The notes: generated by a model not told the origin, from the letters alone. 64,000 nucleotides of DNA from an uncultured Acidobacteriaceae bacterium (GCA_963841345.1 CAWJCK010000003.1:3712342-3776341), one strand, 5' to 3'; shown: positions 3,565 through 59,012, numbered from the stretch's first letter. Made by a program: numbers and translations.

Positions 3565-4002
3565 TCAGTTGCGAGTTAACAGAACAGATTCGATCGAGAG
3601 CGCGACCATGGCGAGGGCCAATCCCGCGATGATCGCATAAACCGCACCATGCAAACACCTTAGACTAACATAGAGAGCCGCACCGGCGATGCACAGACGG
3701 AGCAGAAACATGGCGATCACGAAGCCTGTGGAACGGGGTGAGCGCTGGTTGTCGAGCTTCGCGTTGACGACGCGGATGAGACGGCGGGATTCGTAGATGC
3801 CGCCGGCGGAGATGGTTGCTCCGACGAGGAAGAGCGCGGCGGATTGCCATCCGGAGATGATCCAGATAACGGGCACGCCGATCAGGGTCAGAATGCCGAT
3901 ATTCCGCACCGCGCGGAAGAGTGCGGCGCTGAGATCGGCGTCGGTGAAAGTTAGGAACGGGTTTTCGTTGGGCGACAAGGGGGCTGGTGTGGGGGCGGCC
4001 AT
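3565..4002 (-). CDS. atpI: ATP synthase subunit I
   Basis: Four hydrophobic segments, directly upstream of atpB. Confidence 0.75.
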   Translation of the reverse strand: MAAPTPAPLSPNENPFLTFTDADLSAALFRAVRNIGILTLIGVPVIWIISGWQSAALFLVGATISAGGIYESRRLIRVVNAKLDNQRSPRSTGFVIAMFLLRLCIAGAALYVSLRCLHGAVYAIIAGLALAMVALSIESVLLTRN

Positions 4003-29744: not shown

Positions 29745-29924
29745 CCAATTCTCGAGTAGGATTTTAAGAGGATATACTAGGGCGCGTTCACACTAATCTC
29801 AGTGCTTCGACGATAAGAGCGAAGTAGAGAAAAGCGACGAAGACGACATCGAGTTTCTCAAATCGCGAGAAGATACGGCGGAAGCCTTTCAGTCTGGACG
29901 GGTGGCCCACCCAACCACCATCGA

Positions 29925-30001
29925 GGGTGCCCCATCATTCCGCGCGACCGGGGCCCCCAGCGACAGGTCTTCGTCGCTGGGGTGGTTGGCGGAAGGGTGG
30001 G
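29925..30001 (+). repeat. REP palindrome (GGGTGCCCCAT family) left of RAYT, containing a 37-nt hairpin insert
   Basis: GGGTGCCCCATCATTCCGC...GCGGAAGGGTGGG; inverted copy at 30597-30634. Confidence 0.8.
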
Positions 30002-30081
30002 CGGAGCAAGTCTCCCGTCCTCGGTATCCGATCTAAACCCCTCCATCCACAAAAATGGGGCGATAAGACTAGACTTCCATT

Positions 30082-30594
30082 GTGCCCAAACATCTCGTCC
30101 GCTATCAAAACTCCACGGACTTCCATTTTCTGACCTTCAGTTGTTATCGACGACTCCCTTTGTTAGCCAGAGGAGAAGGCTATCAAGTCTTCGAAGAAGA
30201 GTTGGAACGAGTAAGGCAGCGTTACGAAATGATAGTCACGGGATATGTGCTCATGCCCGAGCACGTCCATCTCTTAGTGAGTGAACCACCCAAAGGGATC
30301 CTCGCCACAGCCATCCAGGCCTTGAAACATCAATCATCGCGAAGGCTAAAACGTCCAGACGATCCCCAATTTTGGCAACGCCGCTACTTCGACTTCAATG
30401 TCTGGAGGCAAGCCAAAATCTGGGAGAAGTTGAACTACATGCACCAGAATCCTGTCGCCCGAGGACTTGTCACGAAGGCCGAAGATTGGCCTTGGTCGAG
30501 CGTTCGCCACTGCACGACAGGTGAGGTGGGAACGATCGAGATCGAATCAGAATGGACGGCGCGAAAACGAGAACTCGAACATAGACATCTGTGA
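30082..30594 (+). mobile_element. REP-associated tyrosine transposase (RAYT, Y1 HUH)
   Basis: HFLTFSCY, VLMPEHVHLL (HUH), FWQRRYFD, LNYMHQNPV (catalytic Tyr), EDWPWSS; flanked by inverted REPs. Confidence 0.9.
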
Positions 30595-30596
30595 AA

Positions 30597-30634
30597 CCCA
30601 CCCTTCCGCACAAGCGCGGAATGATGGGGCACCC
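30597..30634 (-). repeat. REP palindrome right of RAYT
   Basis: CCCACCCTTCCGCACAAGCGCGGAATGATGGGGCACCC. Confidence 0.8.
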
Positions 30635-30733
30635 TCATCGCCGGGTGCTCCGCACTTCAACCCAACCTGCCTTTTTGGTTACACTGAGCGGGTTGTGCAA
30701 ATCGATGGATGATACTTCTTCAAGGGAGATTGC

Positions 30734-53091: not shown

Positions 53092-53940
53092 TGTCATCCT
53101 GAGCGAAGCACGAAGTGCGAGTCGAAGGACCTGCACAGACTCGCCCCAAGAACATTGTCATCCTGAGGCGAAGCCGAAGGACCCGCGGTTGGGATGCTAG
53201 CCCCACCACATAAATGGGTGCCCCATCCTACGCGGCTTCATCGCGTAGGGTGGGTGGATCAAATCTCCCCACCTAACAAATGTCATCCTGAGGCAAAGCC
53301 GAAGGATCTGCGGTTGGGATGCTAGCCCCACCACATAAATGGGTGCCCCATCCTACGCGGCTTCATCGCGTAGGGTGGGTGGATCAAATCTCCCCACCTA
53401 ACAAATGTCATCCTGAGCAACGCGAAGGACCTGCGGTTTACTTCATGCCGCGCCCAAAGGCGCCGGGTGCCCCATTCAAGCCCTCCGTGTTGGGCTTGAG
53501 TGGGATCGCAGACTTACCGCTCCGACAATCGCCATTCCCAGAAAAGATGTCATCCTGACCCTGAGCATCGCGAAGGGAAGGATCTGCGGTTTGCCTAATG
53601 CCGCGCCAAAGGCGCATCCAATCCTCGAACCACTCTCATTCCCAGAAGGAATGTCATCCTGAGGCGAAGCCGAAGGACCTGCGGTTTGCCTAATGCCGCG
53701 CCAAAGGCGCATCCAATCCTCGAACCACTCTCATTCCCAGAAAGAATGTCATCCTGAGCGACGCGAAGGATCTGAGCTTCCAGCGATACCGGGGTGCTCA
53801 TTCAAGCCCCCGGTGTTGGGCTTGAGTGGGATCGCGGACCCACCCCTCGAACAACCGCCATTTCAAGAACAAATGTCATCCTGAGGCGAAGCCGAAGGAT
53901 CTGCGGTTTACCTAATGCCGCGCCGAAGGCGCATCCGACC
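53092..53940 (+). repeat. Array of 8 co-oriented TGTCATCCTGA..GAAGGA(C/T)C palindromes interleaved with GGGTGC-type REPs
   Basis: Units start at 53092, 53156, 53281, 53406, 53548, 53652, 53747, 53874; two near-identical 125-nt tandem units. Confidence 0.92.
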
Positions 53941-54812: not shown

Positions 54813-55475
54813 CGCCTCAGCCGCACTAACCCGCGAATCGGACCGCCTCCCAAATCATGGAGCGACCCCCAAATTTGAGACAGAGTAAGAAGTCCCCATT
54901 TTGATGGAATGGAGGCTTTGGATGAGTCGGAAGTATCGGGTATGGAGTTTGTTGGAGAAGCGGGCAGCGGTTGACCGGATGGGGAAGGAGAAGCACGGTG
55001 AACTGGCGGCCGAGCTGGGGATCTCGAAGCGGCAGCTGTATGCCTGGCGGGACCTTTTTCGGCGTTTGAGGGAGACGGCGAAGAAAGAAGGCAGCCGGGA
55101 GCGGGCCTTGGAGGGGGAGAACCGGAAGCTGAAAGAGGCGCTGGCGACCAAGGTGCTGGAAGCGGATTTCTTACAAGGTGTGTTGCGCAGAATCGAGGCT
55201 CGACGCCAGCCGACCAGCGGCTCCGGCGAGACTGCATCTACGAAGAGGTCCGAGTGATGCGGTCTGCAGCGCACCTTAGCATCGAGTCCATGTGCCGTCT
55301 GGGGCAGGTCAGCCGGGCGGGGTTTTATCGTCATTGGAAGCAGCATGAGCCGCGCGTCGAGCAGGCCGAGCTGCGCGCGCGGATGCACCAGATCGTGCTC
55401 ACCCACCGGCGCAACTATGGTTATCGCCGGGTCACGCAGGAGCTGCGCAACCAGGGCTGGGCGGTGAACCACAAA

Positions 55476-55512
55476 CCGGGTCCCCACGGACAGGTCTTCG
55501 TCCGTGGGGTGG
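55476..55512 (+). repeat. 37-nt hairpin element inserted in IS3 orfB
   Basis: Removing 55476-55515 restores AVNHK-RVARLM; AAA on both sides. Confidence 0.8.
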
Positions 55513-55891
55513 AAACGGGTGGCGCGGCTGATGGCCGAGGACAACCTGCTGTGCCTGCGCAAGCGCAGCTTCGTTCGCACCACCGACTCCGGCCACGATC
55601 TGCGCGTCTGGGTAAACCTGGCCAGCCGCATGCAGCTGACCGGGATCGACCAGCTCTGGGTGGCCGACCTCACCTTCCTCCGGCTGGCCGAGGAGTTCCT
55701 CTATCTGGCCGTGGTGCTGGACGCCTTCTCGCGCCGCGTGCTTGGCTGGGCGCTGGACCAGCGGCTGGATGCAAGGCTTGCGGTGGCCGCTCTGCGCCAG
55801 GTGTTATCGGTAATCTAAAATTCCCCAGATTCGGCGTTTGAAAAATCCCCAGTTGAGGACAAACCGATCATTCTGACCGAGGAGGGTCGGG

Positions 55892-57151
55892 ATGGTGCGA
55901 CTGGAGGGTTTCATGGAGATACAGCAGCTTCATCACGACGGGGTCAGCGTCAGCGAGATAGCACGGCGATTGGCCCTGGACCGCAAGACGGTTCGGAAGT
56001 ACCTGCGTCAGGCGCCACGAGAGTACGAGCGCGTGCCTAAGAGTTGGAAGGTGGATCCTTTTCGCTCCTATCTTCGGGAACGCTGGGAGTTGGGCGTACA
56101 CAACGCGACGCGCTTGTTTGTGGAGATCCGCAAGCGCGGGTATGACGGTTGTCTTACACAGGTGAAGACCGTAGTGCGGCCGTGGCGAAGCGAAGGCCAG
56201 GAGCGGGCGTTCGTCCGCTTTGAGACCGCACCCGGCGAGCAGGCGCAGATGGACTGGGGCCACTTCGGCAACTGGGACGGCAAGCGGCTGTACGGATTTG
56301 CACTGACCCTGTGCTGGTCGCGGATGCAGTACGTGGAGTTCACCCAGCGGCAGGATGCGGAGACGTTGTTGAACTGCATGATGCACGCGATGACGTTCTT
56401 CGGCGGTATCCCGGCGACGGTGCTGACCGACAACATGAAGACGGTGATCCTGGACCGGATTGATGGTCAGCCGCGCTTTCATCCGAAGATGCTGGACTTC
56501 GCCAGCTACTACGGTTTCCTACCGCGGGTCTGCCATCCATATAGGCCACAGACCAAGGGCAAGATCGAGTCCACGATCCGCTACATCAAGGGCAGCTTCT
56601 GGCCAGGCCTAAGCTTCGATTCGCTCGAGGAGCTGAACCGGCTGGCGCTGGTCTGGTGCGAAGAAGCCAACCGGAGGGTCCATGCCACCACCCGCGAGGT
56701 TCCTCTGCAGCGCTTCCCTCACGAAGGGCTGATGCCGTTAAACGGCCAGCCTGCCTATGACACCAGCTATGTGAGCCATCGCCAGGTCGCGAAGGACTGC
56801 CTGGTGGCCTATCGCGGCAACCGTTACTCGGTGCCGCATGTCCACGCCGGCAAGAACGTCGTTGTTCGCGAGCCGCTCGACTCGGGCACGATCCGTATCT
56901 TTTCTCAGCAGGAACTAATCGCTGAACATCGTCTGTCCACGCGGCGCGGAGAGATGGTCGTGGAGCGGTCCCACTATGCCAGCCTGCCGCGAAGATTGCG
57001 TCTGCCGCGCTTCCGCGCAGATCGTCGGATCGTAGAGCTGACACCCGGTCCGGGAGTTGGCCTCCACTATGTGGCACCAGAGGTGGAGTTCCGGCCGCTG
57101 TCGATCTACCAGTCGATCTGTGAGGAGGTGGCCCATGTCGCTTCAGTCTGA
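55892..57151 (+). CDS. istA: IS21 transposase IstA
   Basis: RFETAPGEQAQMDW, LTDNMK, PQTKGKIE. Confidence 0.95.
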   Translation: MVRLEGFMEIQQLHHDGVSVSEIARRLALDRKTVRKYLRQAPREYERVPKSWKVDPFRSYLRERWELGVHNATRLFVEIRKRGYDGCLTQVKTVVRPWRSEGQERAFVRFETAPGEQAQMDWGHFGNWDGKRLYGFALTLCWSRMQYVEFTQRQDAETLLNCMMHAMTFFGGIPATVLTDNMKTVILDRIDGQPRFHPKMLDFASYYGFLPRVCHPYRPQTKGKIESTIRYIKGSFWPGLSFDSLEELNRLALVWCEEANRRVHATTREVPLQRFPHEGLMPLNGQPAYDTSYVSHRQVAKDCLVAYRGNRYSVPHVHAGKNVVVREPLDSGTIRIFSQQELIAEHRLSTRRGEMVVERSHYASLPRRLRLPRFRADRRIVELTPGPGVGLHYVAPEVEFRPLSIYQSICEEVAHVASV

Positions 57152-57917
57152 ACGCCTGCTCAACCACATGCAGGGTCTGCGCCTGACTCATCTGCCCTAC
57201 TGCTACGAAGCACTTGCCGAAGAGGCATCCGTGAAGGACCTCCCCTACCTTGAGTTCCTCGAGCAGGCGCTGGAGGCGGAGAGTCAGGCCAAGCATACCC
57301 GGAACGTGCGGCTGAAAACCCAGTGGGCCCACTTTCCCTATAAGAAAGGACTGGATCAGTTCGACTTCGCCTTCCAGCCGTCGGTGGACGAACGCAAGTT
57401 GCGGGAACTGGCTGGCCTGGCTTTCCTCGAACGCAAGGAGAACGTGCTGCTGCTCGGACCGCCGGGGGTGGGGAAGACCCATCTCGGCATCGCGCTCGGC
57501 ACCGAAGCCATCGTGGCCGGCTTCTCCGTCTATTTCCTCACCATGCAGGATCTGGTTCAGCAGTTCCAGCGCGCCCGCGACGAGAACAAGCTGAAGGAGA
57601 GGATGGCCCTGCTGGTCAAGCCCAAGCTGTTGATCCTCGATGAGATCGGCTATCTGTCGCTGGACTCCTTCGCTGCCACCTGCCTCTTCCAGCTGGTCAG
57701 CGAGCGATACGAAAAAGGCTCGATCATCCTGACCTCGAACAAGAGCTACGGCGATTGGGGCTCCATCTTCGCCGACAACGTCATCGCCTCGGCCATCCTG
57801 GACCGGCTGCTCCATCACTCCACCACCATCAACATCAAGGGCGAGAGCTATCGGCTCAAAGACAAGAAAAAGGCCGGCGTCATCACCGCAAAACTGCCTG
57901 CAAAGGACGGAGGCTAG
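57135..57917 (+). CDS. istB: IS21 helper ATPase IstB
   Basis: GPPGVGKTH, LILDEIGY, TSN..W...F, AILDRLLHH. Confidence 0.95.
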   Translation: MSLQSERLLNHMQGLRLTHLPYCYEALAEEASVKDLPYLEFLEQALEAESQAKHTRNVRLKTQWAHFPYKKGLDQFDFAFQPSVDERKLRELAGLAFLERKENVLLLGPPGVGKTHLGIALGTEAIVAGFSVYFLTMQDLVQQFQRARDENKLKERMALLVKPKLLILDEIGYLSLDSFAATCLFQLVSERYEKGSIILTSNKSYGDWGSIFADNVIASAILDRLLHHSTTINIKGESYRLKDKKKAGVITAKLPAKDGG

Positions 57918-59012
57918 ATCGCCACAGTCCGCGCGGAAGCATGCGGCTCCGGGCTCTGCCCTCCGCCGCATCCTTCCGCCACACCTTAACTCGCCTCAGG
58001 CTGGGGAATTTTCAAGCGTCCCTAAGTGGGGAATTTTCAGTTGACGATGACACCAGGCGATCGACCTGCGCCAGCCTGCCCCAGGCCTGGTGCATCACTC
58101 TGACCGCGGCGTGCAGTACGCCTCCAATGCCTATGTCGAGCTGCTGCTCGAGCACGGCATCGCACCCAGCATGAGCCGGGCCGGCAACCCGTACGACAAC
58201 GCAAAGTGCGAGAGCTTCCTCAAGACCCTCAAGCAGGAGGAGATCTACACTCGGCAATATCGCGACCAGGCCGATCTGGAGGCCCACATCGGCCAGTTCC
58301 TGGAGCGGTATTACAATCGCAAGCGGCTGCACTCGGCGCTCAACTACCGGACGCCAGAGCAGTTCGAACAAAGTCTGTTAGCCAGCCCGGCAGCGGTGCC
58401 GGTACCAAGCATGAGTTTTTTCAGGCATGGGGGAATCTATCGTCCCGATGTTCACCGACAAGCCGGGGAGGAGCCGTTATGACCCCTCCCCAGCCCATCG
58501 CTCTTACCGCCCATCGGTGCGATGAGTTCCAGCCGGGTATTCCTTGGCGAATTGCTCTCCAGCAGAACCCGCCTCCGCTTCCCCGGCCAACCTCAGCCTG
58601 CAACAGCAACTCCCGTTCGCCAAGAAAATCCCAGCGAGCGGCGCAAAGGGACTTCTCTCGCTGTCTCACCCCAGGGGGTCACTCCACCGTGTCAAGTACC
58701 TTCCTCGACAACACCGCACCCTAACCTCAGTGATCCCAGCCACTTAGAAGCAAAAAATAGTTGGCACAGTGAACCACCCCAACTTGATAAACTGGATATA
58801 GGGTTCAAGAAAAAGATTGGGAACCTCAAAGGCAACTGCCGCTGAAGCTGTCGAAGGGTTCGTTATCTGTGTTCACGGCTAATTCGTCGAAAAAAGGATT
58901 TTGAAGCACGCCCCAGACAGAATCAAGATTTATGCCAAAAATGGGCTCCCCAAGCCGCTGAAACTAAAGAACTAAGGCAGTAATAGGGGGGAGGGGGGGT
59001 ACCCCCAATCCA

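Follow-up and report, generated by a model that had tools for sequence, protein, structure and literature searches.

Palindromic repeats that disperse through genomes and may settle inside genes have been described in several groups of bacteria. The Rickettsia palindromic elements (RPE) and the cyanobacterial small dispersed repeats SDR1-8 are reportedly known from the work of Ogata et al. in 2000 and of Elhai et al. in 2008 (Genome Res 18:1484), respectively. The REP, BIME and REPIN elements, which are GTAG- and CGTC-tagged palindromes, are mobilised by RAYT (Di Nocera et al. 2013, PMC3733652; Bertels & Rainey 2011, PMC3116915), and the intragenic REPs of other phyla have been found notably in uvrA/B/D, recBCD, polA and dnaE2 (PMC3733652). 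The former paper also discusses the RPE, and the latter cites the SDR work of Elhai et al. (2008). With regard to inserts within coding sequences that are bypassed in translation, the coding gap of T4 gene 60 is a mobile insert (bioRxiv 10.1101/2022.08.31.505936), and the mitochondrial 'byps' of Magnusiomyces have been reviewed (PMC5009743).

The locus described here lies in a window of 64,000 nucleotides from an uncultured Acidobacteriaceae bacterium, which corresponds to positions 3712342-3776341 of contig C3 in genome G000 (5.95 Mb, 58.8% GC, three contigs). A short hairpin interrupts the orfB gene of an IS3 element in this window, and the insertion, its boundaries, its family, its structure and the recurrent use of its site can all be read directly from the sequences compared. 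The reading that we favour, with a probability of roughly 70%, is that the segment represents a copy of a REP-like palindromic mobile element, 38 nt long and non-autonomous, that inserted into a Lys codon of IS3 orfB.

A 40-nt insertion in an IS3 transposase gene

The 37-mer CCGGGTCCCCACGGACAGGTCTTCGTCCGTGGGGTGG lies at 55476-55512 of the window on the plus strand and occurs nowhere else in it, with 0 of 100 shuffles matching. It is the canonical 38-mer of the family described below minus one G of the 5' CCGGGGT, carries the ACG/CGT variant of the stem, and is composed of a 10-bp GC-rich stem (CCCCACGGAC/GTCCGTGGGG) and an 8-nt loop (AGGTCTTC). The covariance model of the family matches it with 56.1 bits (E = 8.7e-12). 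Folded as RNA, the 57-nt window context reaches -28.5 kcal/mol; the canonical 38-mer folded as DNA reaches -12.5 kcal/mol (z = -3.1), a stability equalled by 1 of 200 shuffles.

Positions 55470-55521 of the window read CAC AAA CCGGGTCCCCACGGACAGGTCTTCGTCCGTGGGGTGG AAA CGG GTG. The left AAA (55473-55475, plus strand) is the Lys codon of the VNH-K-RVARLM motif, in frame with the upstream part of orfB, and the right AAA (55513-55515, plus strand) is in frame with the downstream part. An empty IS3 paralog in the same genome (C3:1204724-1205124) has a single AAA at this place, in the context ...GAACCAC AAA CGGGTGG..., and is exactly 40 nt shorter than the window copy, with one mismatch otherwise over a 442-nt stretch that spans the site. 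The window insert thus amounts to 37 nt plus a 3-nt repeat. Since AAA is followed by C at both places, the repeat may be AAA or AAAC (an ambiguity of 4 nt), with a net gain of 40 nt either way. The empty form encodes ...GWAVNHKRVARLM..., a conserved HTH_21 motif, and the filled form is therefore the derived one. In the latter, the hairpin splits the HTH_21 domain of OrfB and shifts the downstream frame by +1, which would certainly abolish OrfB as annotated.

The original prediction had proposed, from the window alone, a precise 40-nt insertion that frameshifts IS3 orfB, and this is borne out both by the paralog, in which alignment with the window copy leaves CAC AAA CGG and removes exactly the 40 nt, and by empty relatives in other genomes. 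Among the IS3 relatives gathered from 41 and then 301 genomes, about 27 are empty, with no hairpin anywhere in the locus, which disposes of the notion that all relatives of this IS3 carry the segment.

The interrupted element belongs to the IS3 family by its gene content, with an orfA that encodes HTH_Tnp_1 and an orfB in the -1 frame that encodes HTH_21 and an rve core; an intact relative (L163) presents HTH_21, rve and rve_3 (Pfam). In the window, orfA (54901-55257, plus strand) with its HTH_Tnp_1 domain (Pfam) is followed by the N-terminal part of orfB (55254-55475, plus strand), which lies in the -1 frame relative to orfA and covers positions 5-41 of the 60 positions of the HTH_21 profile. 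The middle part of orfB (55513-55801, plus strand), displaced by +1 by the insert, holds the remaining HTH_21 and the start of rve. An IS21-family element of 2251 bp with istA and istB (55802-58052, plus strand) then lies within the IS3, and CCAGG is duplicated at 55797-55801 and 58053-57. Beyond it, orfB resumes intact (...AIDLRQPAPGLVHHSDRGVQYAS...PYDNAKCESF...) in the remainder of the IS3 (58053-58817, plus strand), which comprises the DDE core of orfB, otherwise intact, and the right end, at 95% identity to the other chromosomal copy. Apart from its inserts, the window copy has the full length of an IS3.

The genome has this IS3 in three copies, namely the window copy, the empty copy on C3 and a truncated copy on contig C2 (C2:53260-54056) that bears an identical hairpin. 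The two chromosomal copies are mosaic, with 99.8% identity in the left part and 95% in the right part. Since the two hairpin-bearing copies differ in their later damage (IS21 in one, truncation in the other), the hairpin came earlier than the other lesions in its lineage, and the insertion would thus be older than the split of these two copies, the IS21 insertion and the C2 truncation. The hairpin-marked IS3 is found at two loci, on the chromosomal contig and on C2, which it reached after gaining the hairpin; presumably it was mobilised in trans or before the later decay.

The hairpin family, its structure and its surroundings

Loop-centred and pattern searches recovered related hairpins in the window genome and in 8 of the 9 genomes of the genus. 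Their 38-nt consensus is CCGGGGT-CCCC-NNN-GAC-AGGTCTTC-GTC-NNN-GGGG-TGG, or by position N1-C-G-GGG(T/C)-CCCC-NNN-GAC-AGGTCTTC-GTC-NNN-GGGG-T-G-N38, which places an outer 3-bp helix, a GGG(T/C) bulge, a 10-bp stem and the conserved AGGTCTTC loop in succession. When one genome of each prokaryotic species was scanned with the pattern CCCCNNNGACRGGTCTTCGTCNNNGGGG, at least 136 copies in at least 120 loci were returned, nearly all of those listed being labelled Acidobacteriaceae, Terracidiphilus or Silvibacterium. The hairpin family is widespread in the Acidobacteriaceae and common among soil Acidobacteria. The stem triplet pairs among these copies are GGC/GCT (35), ACG/CGT (18), AGC/GCT (17), AAC/GTT (10), ACA/TGT (8) and others. 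A covariance model (R1) matches 19 times in the window genome, at about 10 independent loci that include a divergent 39-nt subfamily, and finds matches in 24 of 41 relatives. These copies across genomes make the hairpin a member of a dispersed family whose boundaries are consistent. In an alignment of 58 distinct copies, the 5' end reads (C)CGGGG(T/C) and the 3' end TGG.

In these 58 sequences, 96.9% of cells are paired, compared with 86.8% in shuffles. Double-sided changes occur in 73 cells against 23.5 expected, a value reached by 0 of 500 shuffles and lost in all slid controls; covariation is informative only in the outer helix and at the three pairs left free by the search pattern, which fixed 7 of the 10 inner ones. 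The covarying pairs are 1-38, 12-31, 13-30 and 14-29; the inner two of the free pairs are 92-98% paired, against 44-49% in shuffles. The terminal pair 1-38 occurs as C-G, U-A, G-C and A-U, and the ends of the element are therefore fixed at 38 nt. The wobbles are strand-specific, with 53 G·T (G in the 5' arm, T in the 3' arm) compared with 2 T·G, 3 A·C and 2 C·A. It follows that the hairpin matters on one strand only, as single-stranded DNA or as RNA. In functional and structural terms, the hairpin is a REP/RPE/SDR-like mobile palindrome. A search of Rfam 15 over 55300-55700 at E <= 10 gave no family, its sole match being a chance one to a fly lncRNA model, and a description of the family was found neither in Rfam nor in the literature searched.

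Several copies sit inside the loops of unrelated palindromes, for example in the arrangements GGGCACGACTTCA-E-..TTCAGTCGTGCC, GTGGCTTTTTCC..-E-..GGAAGTAAAAGCCAC and GGGTGCCCCAGGTC-E-..GACCTGGGA, where E is the element. The window itself holds a second family member of the AGC/GCT variant (29948-29985, plus strand) within the left flanking REP of a RAYT gene (Y1_Tnp, 30082-30594), where it occupies the loop; the right REP (30597-30636) has the same arms as the left one and a 4-nt loop. Head-to-tail arrays with a period of 41-42 nt are also found, the copies being otherwise singletons. One array (L080) has six units, and its spacer AAAG also stands at both outer ends. In L012, L072 and other arrays, neighbouring units have different stems, which argues for separate adjacent insertions and not for slippage.

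With regard to genes, in-frame copies with Pfam domains on both sides are found in UvrA, PriA, Lhr, an alpha-amylase, a GH3 protein and an FG-GAP/UnbV protein. The UvrA copies occupy two different sites, one of them within a REP that is itself inside uvrA, and the others lie in the Cys-rich region of PriA, the Helicase_C domain of Lhr, the catalytic domain of the alpha-amylase and the GH3 glucosidase. A further in-frame copy (L016) falls in a putative RNase R (rnr), as judged from the ORF reading only. The bias toward DNA-repair and replication genes reported for intragenic REPs (PMC3733652) appears here as well. Read by eye, the canonical consensus is free of stop codons in all six frames, and the copies spanned by ORFs use essentially two of them, f3 and r2, which give GVPxDRSSSxGW on the same strand and HPTDEDLSVGTP on the opposite strand; this restriction looks like selection on the encoded loop. 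The RPE-like persistence in frame within protein genes is thus a property of other copies, and the IS3 copy, at 40 nt, is out of frame.

A partner that could mobilise the family was sought among the surrounding genes. When 2973 ORFs from the at least 120 loci were clustered, only generic families recurred as neighbours, such as ABC ATPases. No RAYT gene flanked by the element was found in the window genome, whose Y1_Tnp loci have other REPs, of the GGGTGCCCC type. Moreover, the presence of Y1_Tnp does not track that of the element, as G001 has 14 copies and no Y1_Tnp, and many Y1_Tnp-positive genomes are without copies. A cognate RAYT was therefore rejected as a candidate, both because the Y1_Tnp loci carry other REPs and because a phyletic correlation is lacking.

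Junctions and the recurrent lysine codon

Of 80 distinct copies, 9 have an exact direct repeat of 4 nt on the two sides of the 38-mer, compared with a mean of 0.9 and a maximum of 5 in 2000 shuffles, and about 85% of copies are without a perfect flanking repeat. Positions -4 to -1 show increased matching at a period of 42 (0.38-0.60, compared with about 0.25), and the four bases on either side of the element are A-rich or purine-rich. Because the repeat varies in length and a perfect one is mostly absent, a classical transposase with a fixed stagger is unlikely. The two known empty sites also disagree, the window giving AAA or AAAC, and the filled copy L131 of genome G002 giving 'AG+38-mer' between CGT and AAG with an ambiguity of 1 nt. 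Donor-like copies in G002 are flanked as ...TAG-38-mer-AAAG, so that the extra AG of L131 could have come with the element. The possible AAA duplication of the original prediction is accordingly present at the window copy, but no fixed AAA holds family-wide, the flanking repeats ranging from about 1 to 7 nt and often being A-rich and of 3-4 nt. Taken together, the junctions seem to fit an A-rich, microhomology-guided integration with variable ends and a net gain of 40-42 nt, and to fit a fixed staggered cut less well.

A generic model of this kind would run as follows. The family would spread by copy-and-paste via the single-stranded hairpin form of one particular strand, probably mobilised by an enzyme acting in trans, and would integrate at short A-rich sites, in many cases within a hairpin loop or beside an existing copy. 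The junctions would involve the use or duplication of 1-4 nt, and on occasion of up to 7 nt, possibly in a microhomology or duplication step, for a net 40-42 nt. Genic copies of 42 nt would survive as in-frame loops of 14 residues, and the IS3 copies, 1-2 nt short at the 5' junction, would cause a frameshift. In IS3 the element entered the Lys codon of the motif VN(H/R)K-R(V/I)ARLM in the HTH_21 domain, where the insert separates the DNA-binding N-terminus from the DDE core.

The same Lys codon is filled in four IS3 lineages. Besides the window and C2 copies, it is occupied in L131 of G002 (AAC CGT AG[38]AAG CGC, +40), in L132 of G036, which belongs to another family of the same order (CAC AAG[38]AAG CGC, +41, with three loop changes), and in L166, on a soil-metagenome contig (CAC AAG[38]AAG CGC GTG, +41). 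All four have the ACG/CGT stem, a variant that makes up 18 of the at least 136 copies listed, and their lengths of +40, +40, +41 and +41 include none of +42. Their 3' junction (TGG/AAR) lies in the frame of the in-frame genic copies, and the shortfall of 1-2 nt falls at the 5' junction. Over the length of the IS, the filled copy of G002 shares 99.7% identity with an intact empty one, with the 40-nt 'AG+38-mer' as the sole difference, and two further intact empties bring the genome to three empties beside one filled copy. In a tree of OrfB, the filled copies are scattered among empties over at least three supported clades, and the flanks are lineage-specific right up to the Lys codon. A search for further filled IS3 copies by their junction pattern gave a single metagenome match (L166), and in 401 genomes of the family the pattern returned the known copies only, plus one false positive (L169). 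Another ACG/CGT copy was not found in the window genome, which thus offers no donor candidate.

Four gains are more parsimonious than one gain followed by at least seven precise losses; they would, however, call for a real target specificity, for which random A-rich targeting in the generic model cannot account. That four diverged lineages carry one variant at one codon points to targeted insertion, and this recurrence is the part that would surprise specialists.

Several other accounts of the site were set aside. The scatter of filled copies in the OrfB tree speaks against a single ancestral insertion, and co-conversion tracts around the hairpin are absent, lineage-specific bases reaching it. 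A structured target was rejected since shuffled sequences fold as well as the empty sites of two IS3 lineages. A guide-like relation of the stem triplet to the flank was also dropped, as the flanks of ACG/CGT copies, compared by eye, share no motif; so was -1 frameshifting, there being no X XXY YYZ heptamer before the hairpin.

One alternative to the preferred reading, which we regard as unlikely, is that the ACG/CGT hairpin homed specifically to the HTH_21 Lys codon of IS3 transposases via a nuclease or integrase acting in trans or a guide-like interaction, and would serve to regulate this IS3 clade or to knock it out in a targeted way, a more pointed version of the brake discussed below. Such homing would account for the shared codon and stem of the window/C2, L131, L132 and L166 inserts, their dispersal among empties in at least three supported OrfB clades, the lineage-specific flanks up to the codon, the lack of the hairpin at any other position in about 30 IS3 loci, and four inserts that are all out of frame (+40, +40, +41, +41) when genic copies elsewhere are in frame. 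It sits badly with ACG/CGT copies that stand elsewhere in unrelated contexts with no common target motif, with a target that has no significant fold and with the want of a candidate enzyme; the sample consists of four lineages only, and the element is otherwise not tied to IS genes (about 10 loci in the window genome, at least 120 listed elsewhere). By a similar token, it is a doubtful proposition, to be held tentatively, that the ACG/CGT variant is directed to this one IS3 codon as a heritable off-switch, or as a switch made reversible or bypassable by the duplicated Lys codons, which would permit a precise excision or a ribosome hop.

A very improbable alternative is an old functional insertion, made once in an ancestral IS3 and kept because it is tolerated or regulates transposase synthesis, through a ribosome hop between identical Lys codons or a frame shift, with rare precise excision yielding constitutively active, proliferating empties. 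The same site and variant would be expected from it, as would a hairpin that is near-perfectly conserved when the IS flanks differ by 17-40%; in three of the four inserts the same Lys codon stands in frame before and after the hairpin (AAA/AAA, AAG/AAG and AAG/AAG), which makes a length of 40 or 41 nt immaterial to a hop. The ORFs of the filled copies are intact apart from the hairpin and the later IS21 or truncation, and G002 has its three intact empties and one filled copy. However, at least 7 precise losses would be needed on the tree in place of 4 gains, and L131 (CGT AG[38]AAG) is without a matching take-off codon and could not have given rise to its empty sister by direct-repeat slippage. 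There is no slippery heptamer, the codon after the putative take-off is CCG, neither a stop nor obviously rare, and the hairpin keeps the canonical loop and bulge of the family with none of the drift expected under a constraint on structure only. Scant credence can likewise be given to the idea that one original insert passed laterally among diverged IS3 copies residing together, through template switching or short-patch recombination. A single origin would agree with one variant at one site, the mosaic IS3 copies (99.8% left, 95% right) attest to IS-IS recombination, and the DNA just downstream is the most conserved stretch of orfB, with distant matches starting at query position 213-214. Yet co-conversion is missing, since in the window copy, L131 and L166 the bases directly next to either end of the hairpin are specific to the lineage; a divergence of 20-40% is high for homologous exchange, and the junction lengths vary among lineages.

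The suggestion that such insertions could act as a host brake on IS activity fares less well than the insertion itself. An enrichment in IS genes is absent, as 1 of about 10 independent loci in the window genome lies in an IS and an IS3 OrfB is near the hairpin in 0 of the at least 120 listed loci elsewhere (at least 136 copies). Elsewhere, copies within genes typically preserve the reading frame without inactivating the gene, and the brake would not be absolute, given that a hairpin-bearing IS3 reached two loci. A special, possibly targeted relationship with this IS3 gene has the recurrence of the site as its only favouring feature.

Comparison with known mobile palindromes and bypassed inserts

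The REP, BIME and REPIN elements resemble the acidobacterial hairpin in being GC-rich imperfect palindromes of 20-40 nt that are dispersed, have covarying stems, tolerate G·T pairs and are in part intragenic. As a short, repeated GC-rich palindrome the hairpin agrees with a REP; however, the GTAG/CGTC tag is absent, its ends being CCGGGGT and TGG, and neither is a RAYT of the window genome flanked by it nor does it co-occur with Y1_Tnp in the genomes compared. REPs are reported in uvrA/B/D and other such genes, and the acidobacterial copies lie in uvrA (twice), priA, lhr and a putative rnr. REPINs are inverted doublets, whereas the acidobacterial hairpin occurs as singletons or head-to-tail, with short A-rich flanking repeats.

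The MITEs are likewise non-autonomous, with arms comparable to terminal inverted repeats and short flanking direct repeats, but they measure 70-300 nt. The present element has 38 nt, its flanking repeat is variable, at 1-4 nt by the IS3 junctions, and mostly absent, and a parent IS with matching ends was not found. The strand-specific G·T wobbles and the covariation of the arms argue for a single-stranded hairpin rather than for recognition of double-stranded terminal inverted repeats.

The bypassed inserts share with the IS3 copies a GC-rich hairpin, a length of 27-55 nt, a position within coding sequence and identical take-off and landing codons (here AAA...AAA). These codons are matched as AAA/AAA in the window and as AAG/AAG in L132 and L166, and not in L131, so that one of the four IS3 inserts is unmatched. 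In contrast to the known cases, no stop or hungry codon follows the take-off and no known nascent-peptide signal is present, and the likeness is one of sequence.

The RPE are similar as selfish palindromes that persist in frame inside essential genes as surface peptides, in restricted frames. RPE-1 measures about 100-150 bp and belongs to obligate intracellular alpha-proteobacteria, whereas the hairpin has 38 nt (+4) in free-living Acidobacteria, and the copy studied here is out of frame and inactivating. The SDRs, proposed as the smallest mobile elements, are alike by description, as tiny hairpins with compensatory changes that nest in other repeats and in themselves and have no known enzyme; they differ in length (21-27 nt, compared with 38 nt) and in phylum. 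We know of no report of recurrent insertion into one transposase codon for SDRs.

Set beside these systems, the hairpin family is a well-delimited addition to the very short list of mobile DNA of less than 50 nt, from a phylum whose repeats have barely been studied. Filled and empty alleles are available in two genomes, and the boundaries of the moving unit are therefore known to the base. Nesting in palindromes, insertion next to itself and in-frame survival in DNA-repair and replication genes are combined in one family. Furthermore, the 60-bp IS3 target could be used as a trap for the insertion machinery, which has so far been impossible for elements of the REP, RPE and SDR types. If true, the targeting would amount to a new form of conflict or regulation between mobile elements, sequence-specific and exerted by a non-coding element of 38 nt.

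Hairpin copies in frame within genes

Several copies of the hairpin, a 38-nt family palindrome, lie within genes of other genomes. At locus L080, in a Terracidiphilus MAG (JBEKQD010000071.1, locus positions 3686-3940), six hairpin units are arranged head-to-tail with a 42-nt period, three with the free triplet pair AGC/GCT followed by three with GGC/GCT. This array is in frame within a 321-codon open frame and encodes a 14-residue tandem repeat, GVPSDRSSSLGWKA. A nested insertion is found in uvrA of another Terracidiphilus MAG (JBAUBR010000420.1, locus L086, positions ~800-900), where a GGGTGCCCC-type REP is in frame in the gene, the 38-nt hairpin sits within the REP loop, and the reading frame is kept across the entire REP and hairpin stretch. 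In two further MAGs (loci L100 and L074), orthologous genes hold a hairpin at the identical site; the stems have decayed (GCC/GCC and GGC/GCG). This is an old in-frame copy inherited vertically, which could aid in dating the hairpin family.

Mosaic IS3 copies and their IS21 insertions

The window IS3, whose orfB is split by the hairpin at 55476-55512, is 99.8% identical in its left part to the other chromosomal copy, and its right part (58053-58817) shares only 95% identity with contig C3:1203963-1204727 of the source genome. On these identities the IS3 copies are mosaic, which suggests IS-IS recombination between them, possibly by way of the IS21 common to both. Two IS3 copies are each interrupted, at differing positions, by a 2251-bp IS21-family element (istA/istB), which in the window IS3 occupies 55802-58052 with a CCAGG duplication at the insertion. 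Further coordinates of the element are C3:1205125-1207375, C2:356002-358253 and C3:4483629-4485729, and the genome carries near-identical IS21 copies at other places too. Just upstream of the IS3, at 53092-53940, other palindromic repeats of the GTCATCCTGAGG.. and GGGTGCCCCA.. types are packed into a dense array.

Amplified, REP-nested and divergent hairpins in the source genome

The hairpins at C3:3220665-3225179 arose by segmental amplification and not by separate insertions; here a repeat with ~285 bp spacing occurs five times, its modules being GTCATCCTGA..., GATGCCCCATTCAAG, the hairpin and AAGCCATCCTTTGGCTTGAGTGGGAT. Window positions 29920-30640 comprise a RAYT gene (Y1_Tnp, 170 aa) bordered on both sides by GAGGGTGCCCCATCATTCCGCGC-type REPs in inverted orientation; hairpin copy 1 (29948-29985) lies within the loop of the left REP, and the loop of the right one is 4 nt. 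A divergent subfamily of 38-39 nt (e.g. CCGGGGTCCCCGGCGAGCGGTCTCTGCTCGCTGGGGTGG; C2:397561-398804, C3:348605 and C3:2476809) shares its outer parts with the main hairpin but differs from it in the inner stem and loop; its members occupy the loops that GTCATCCTGAGCGAAGCCGCG-type repeats form.
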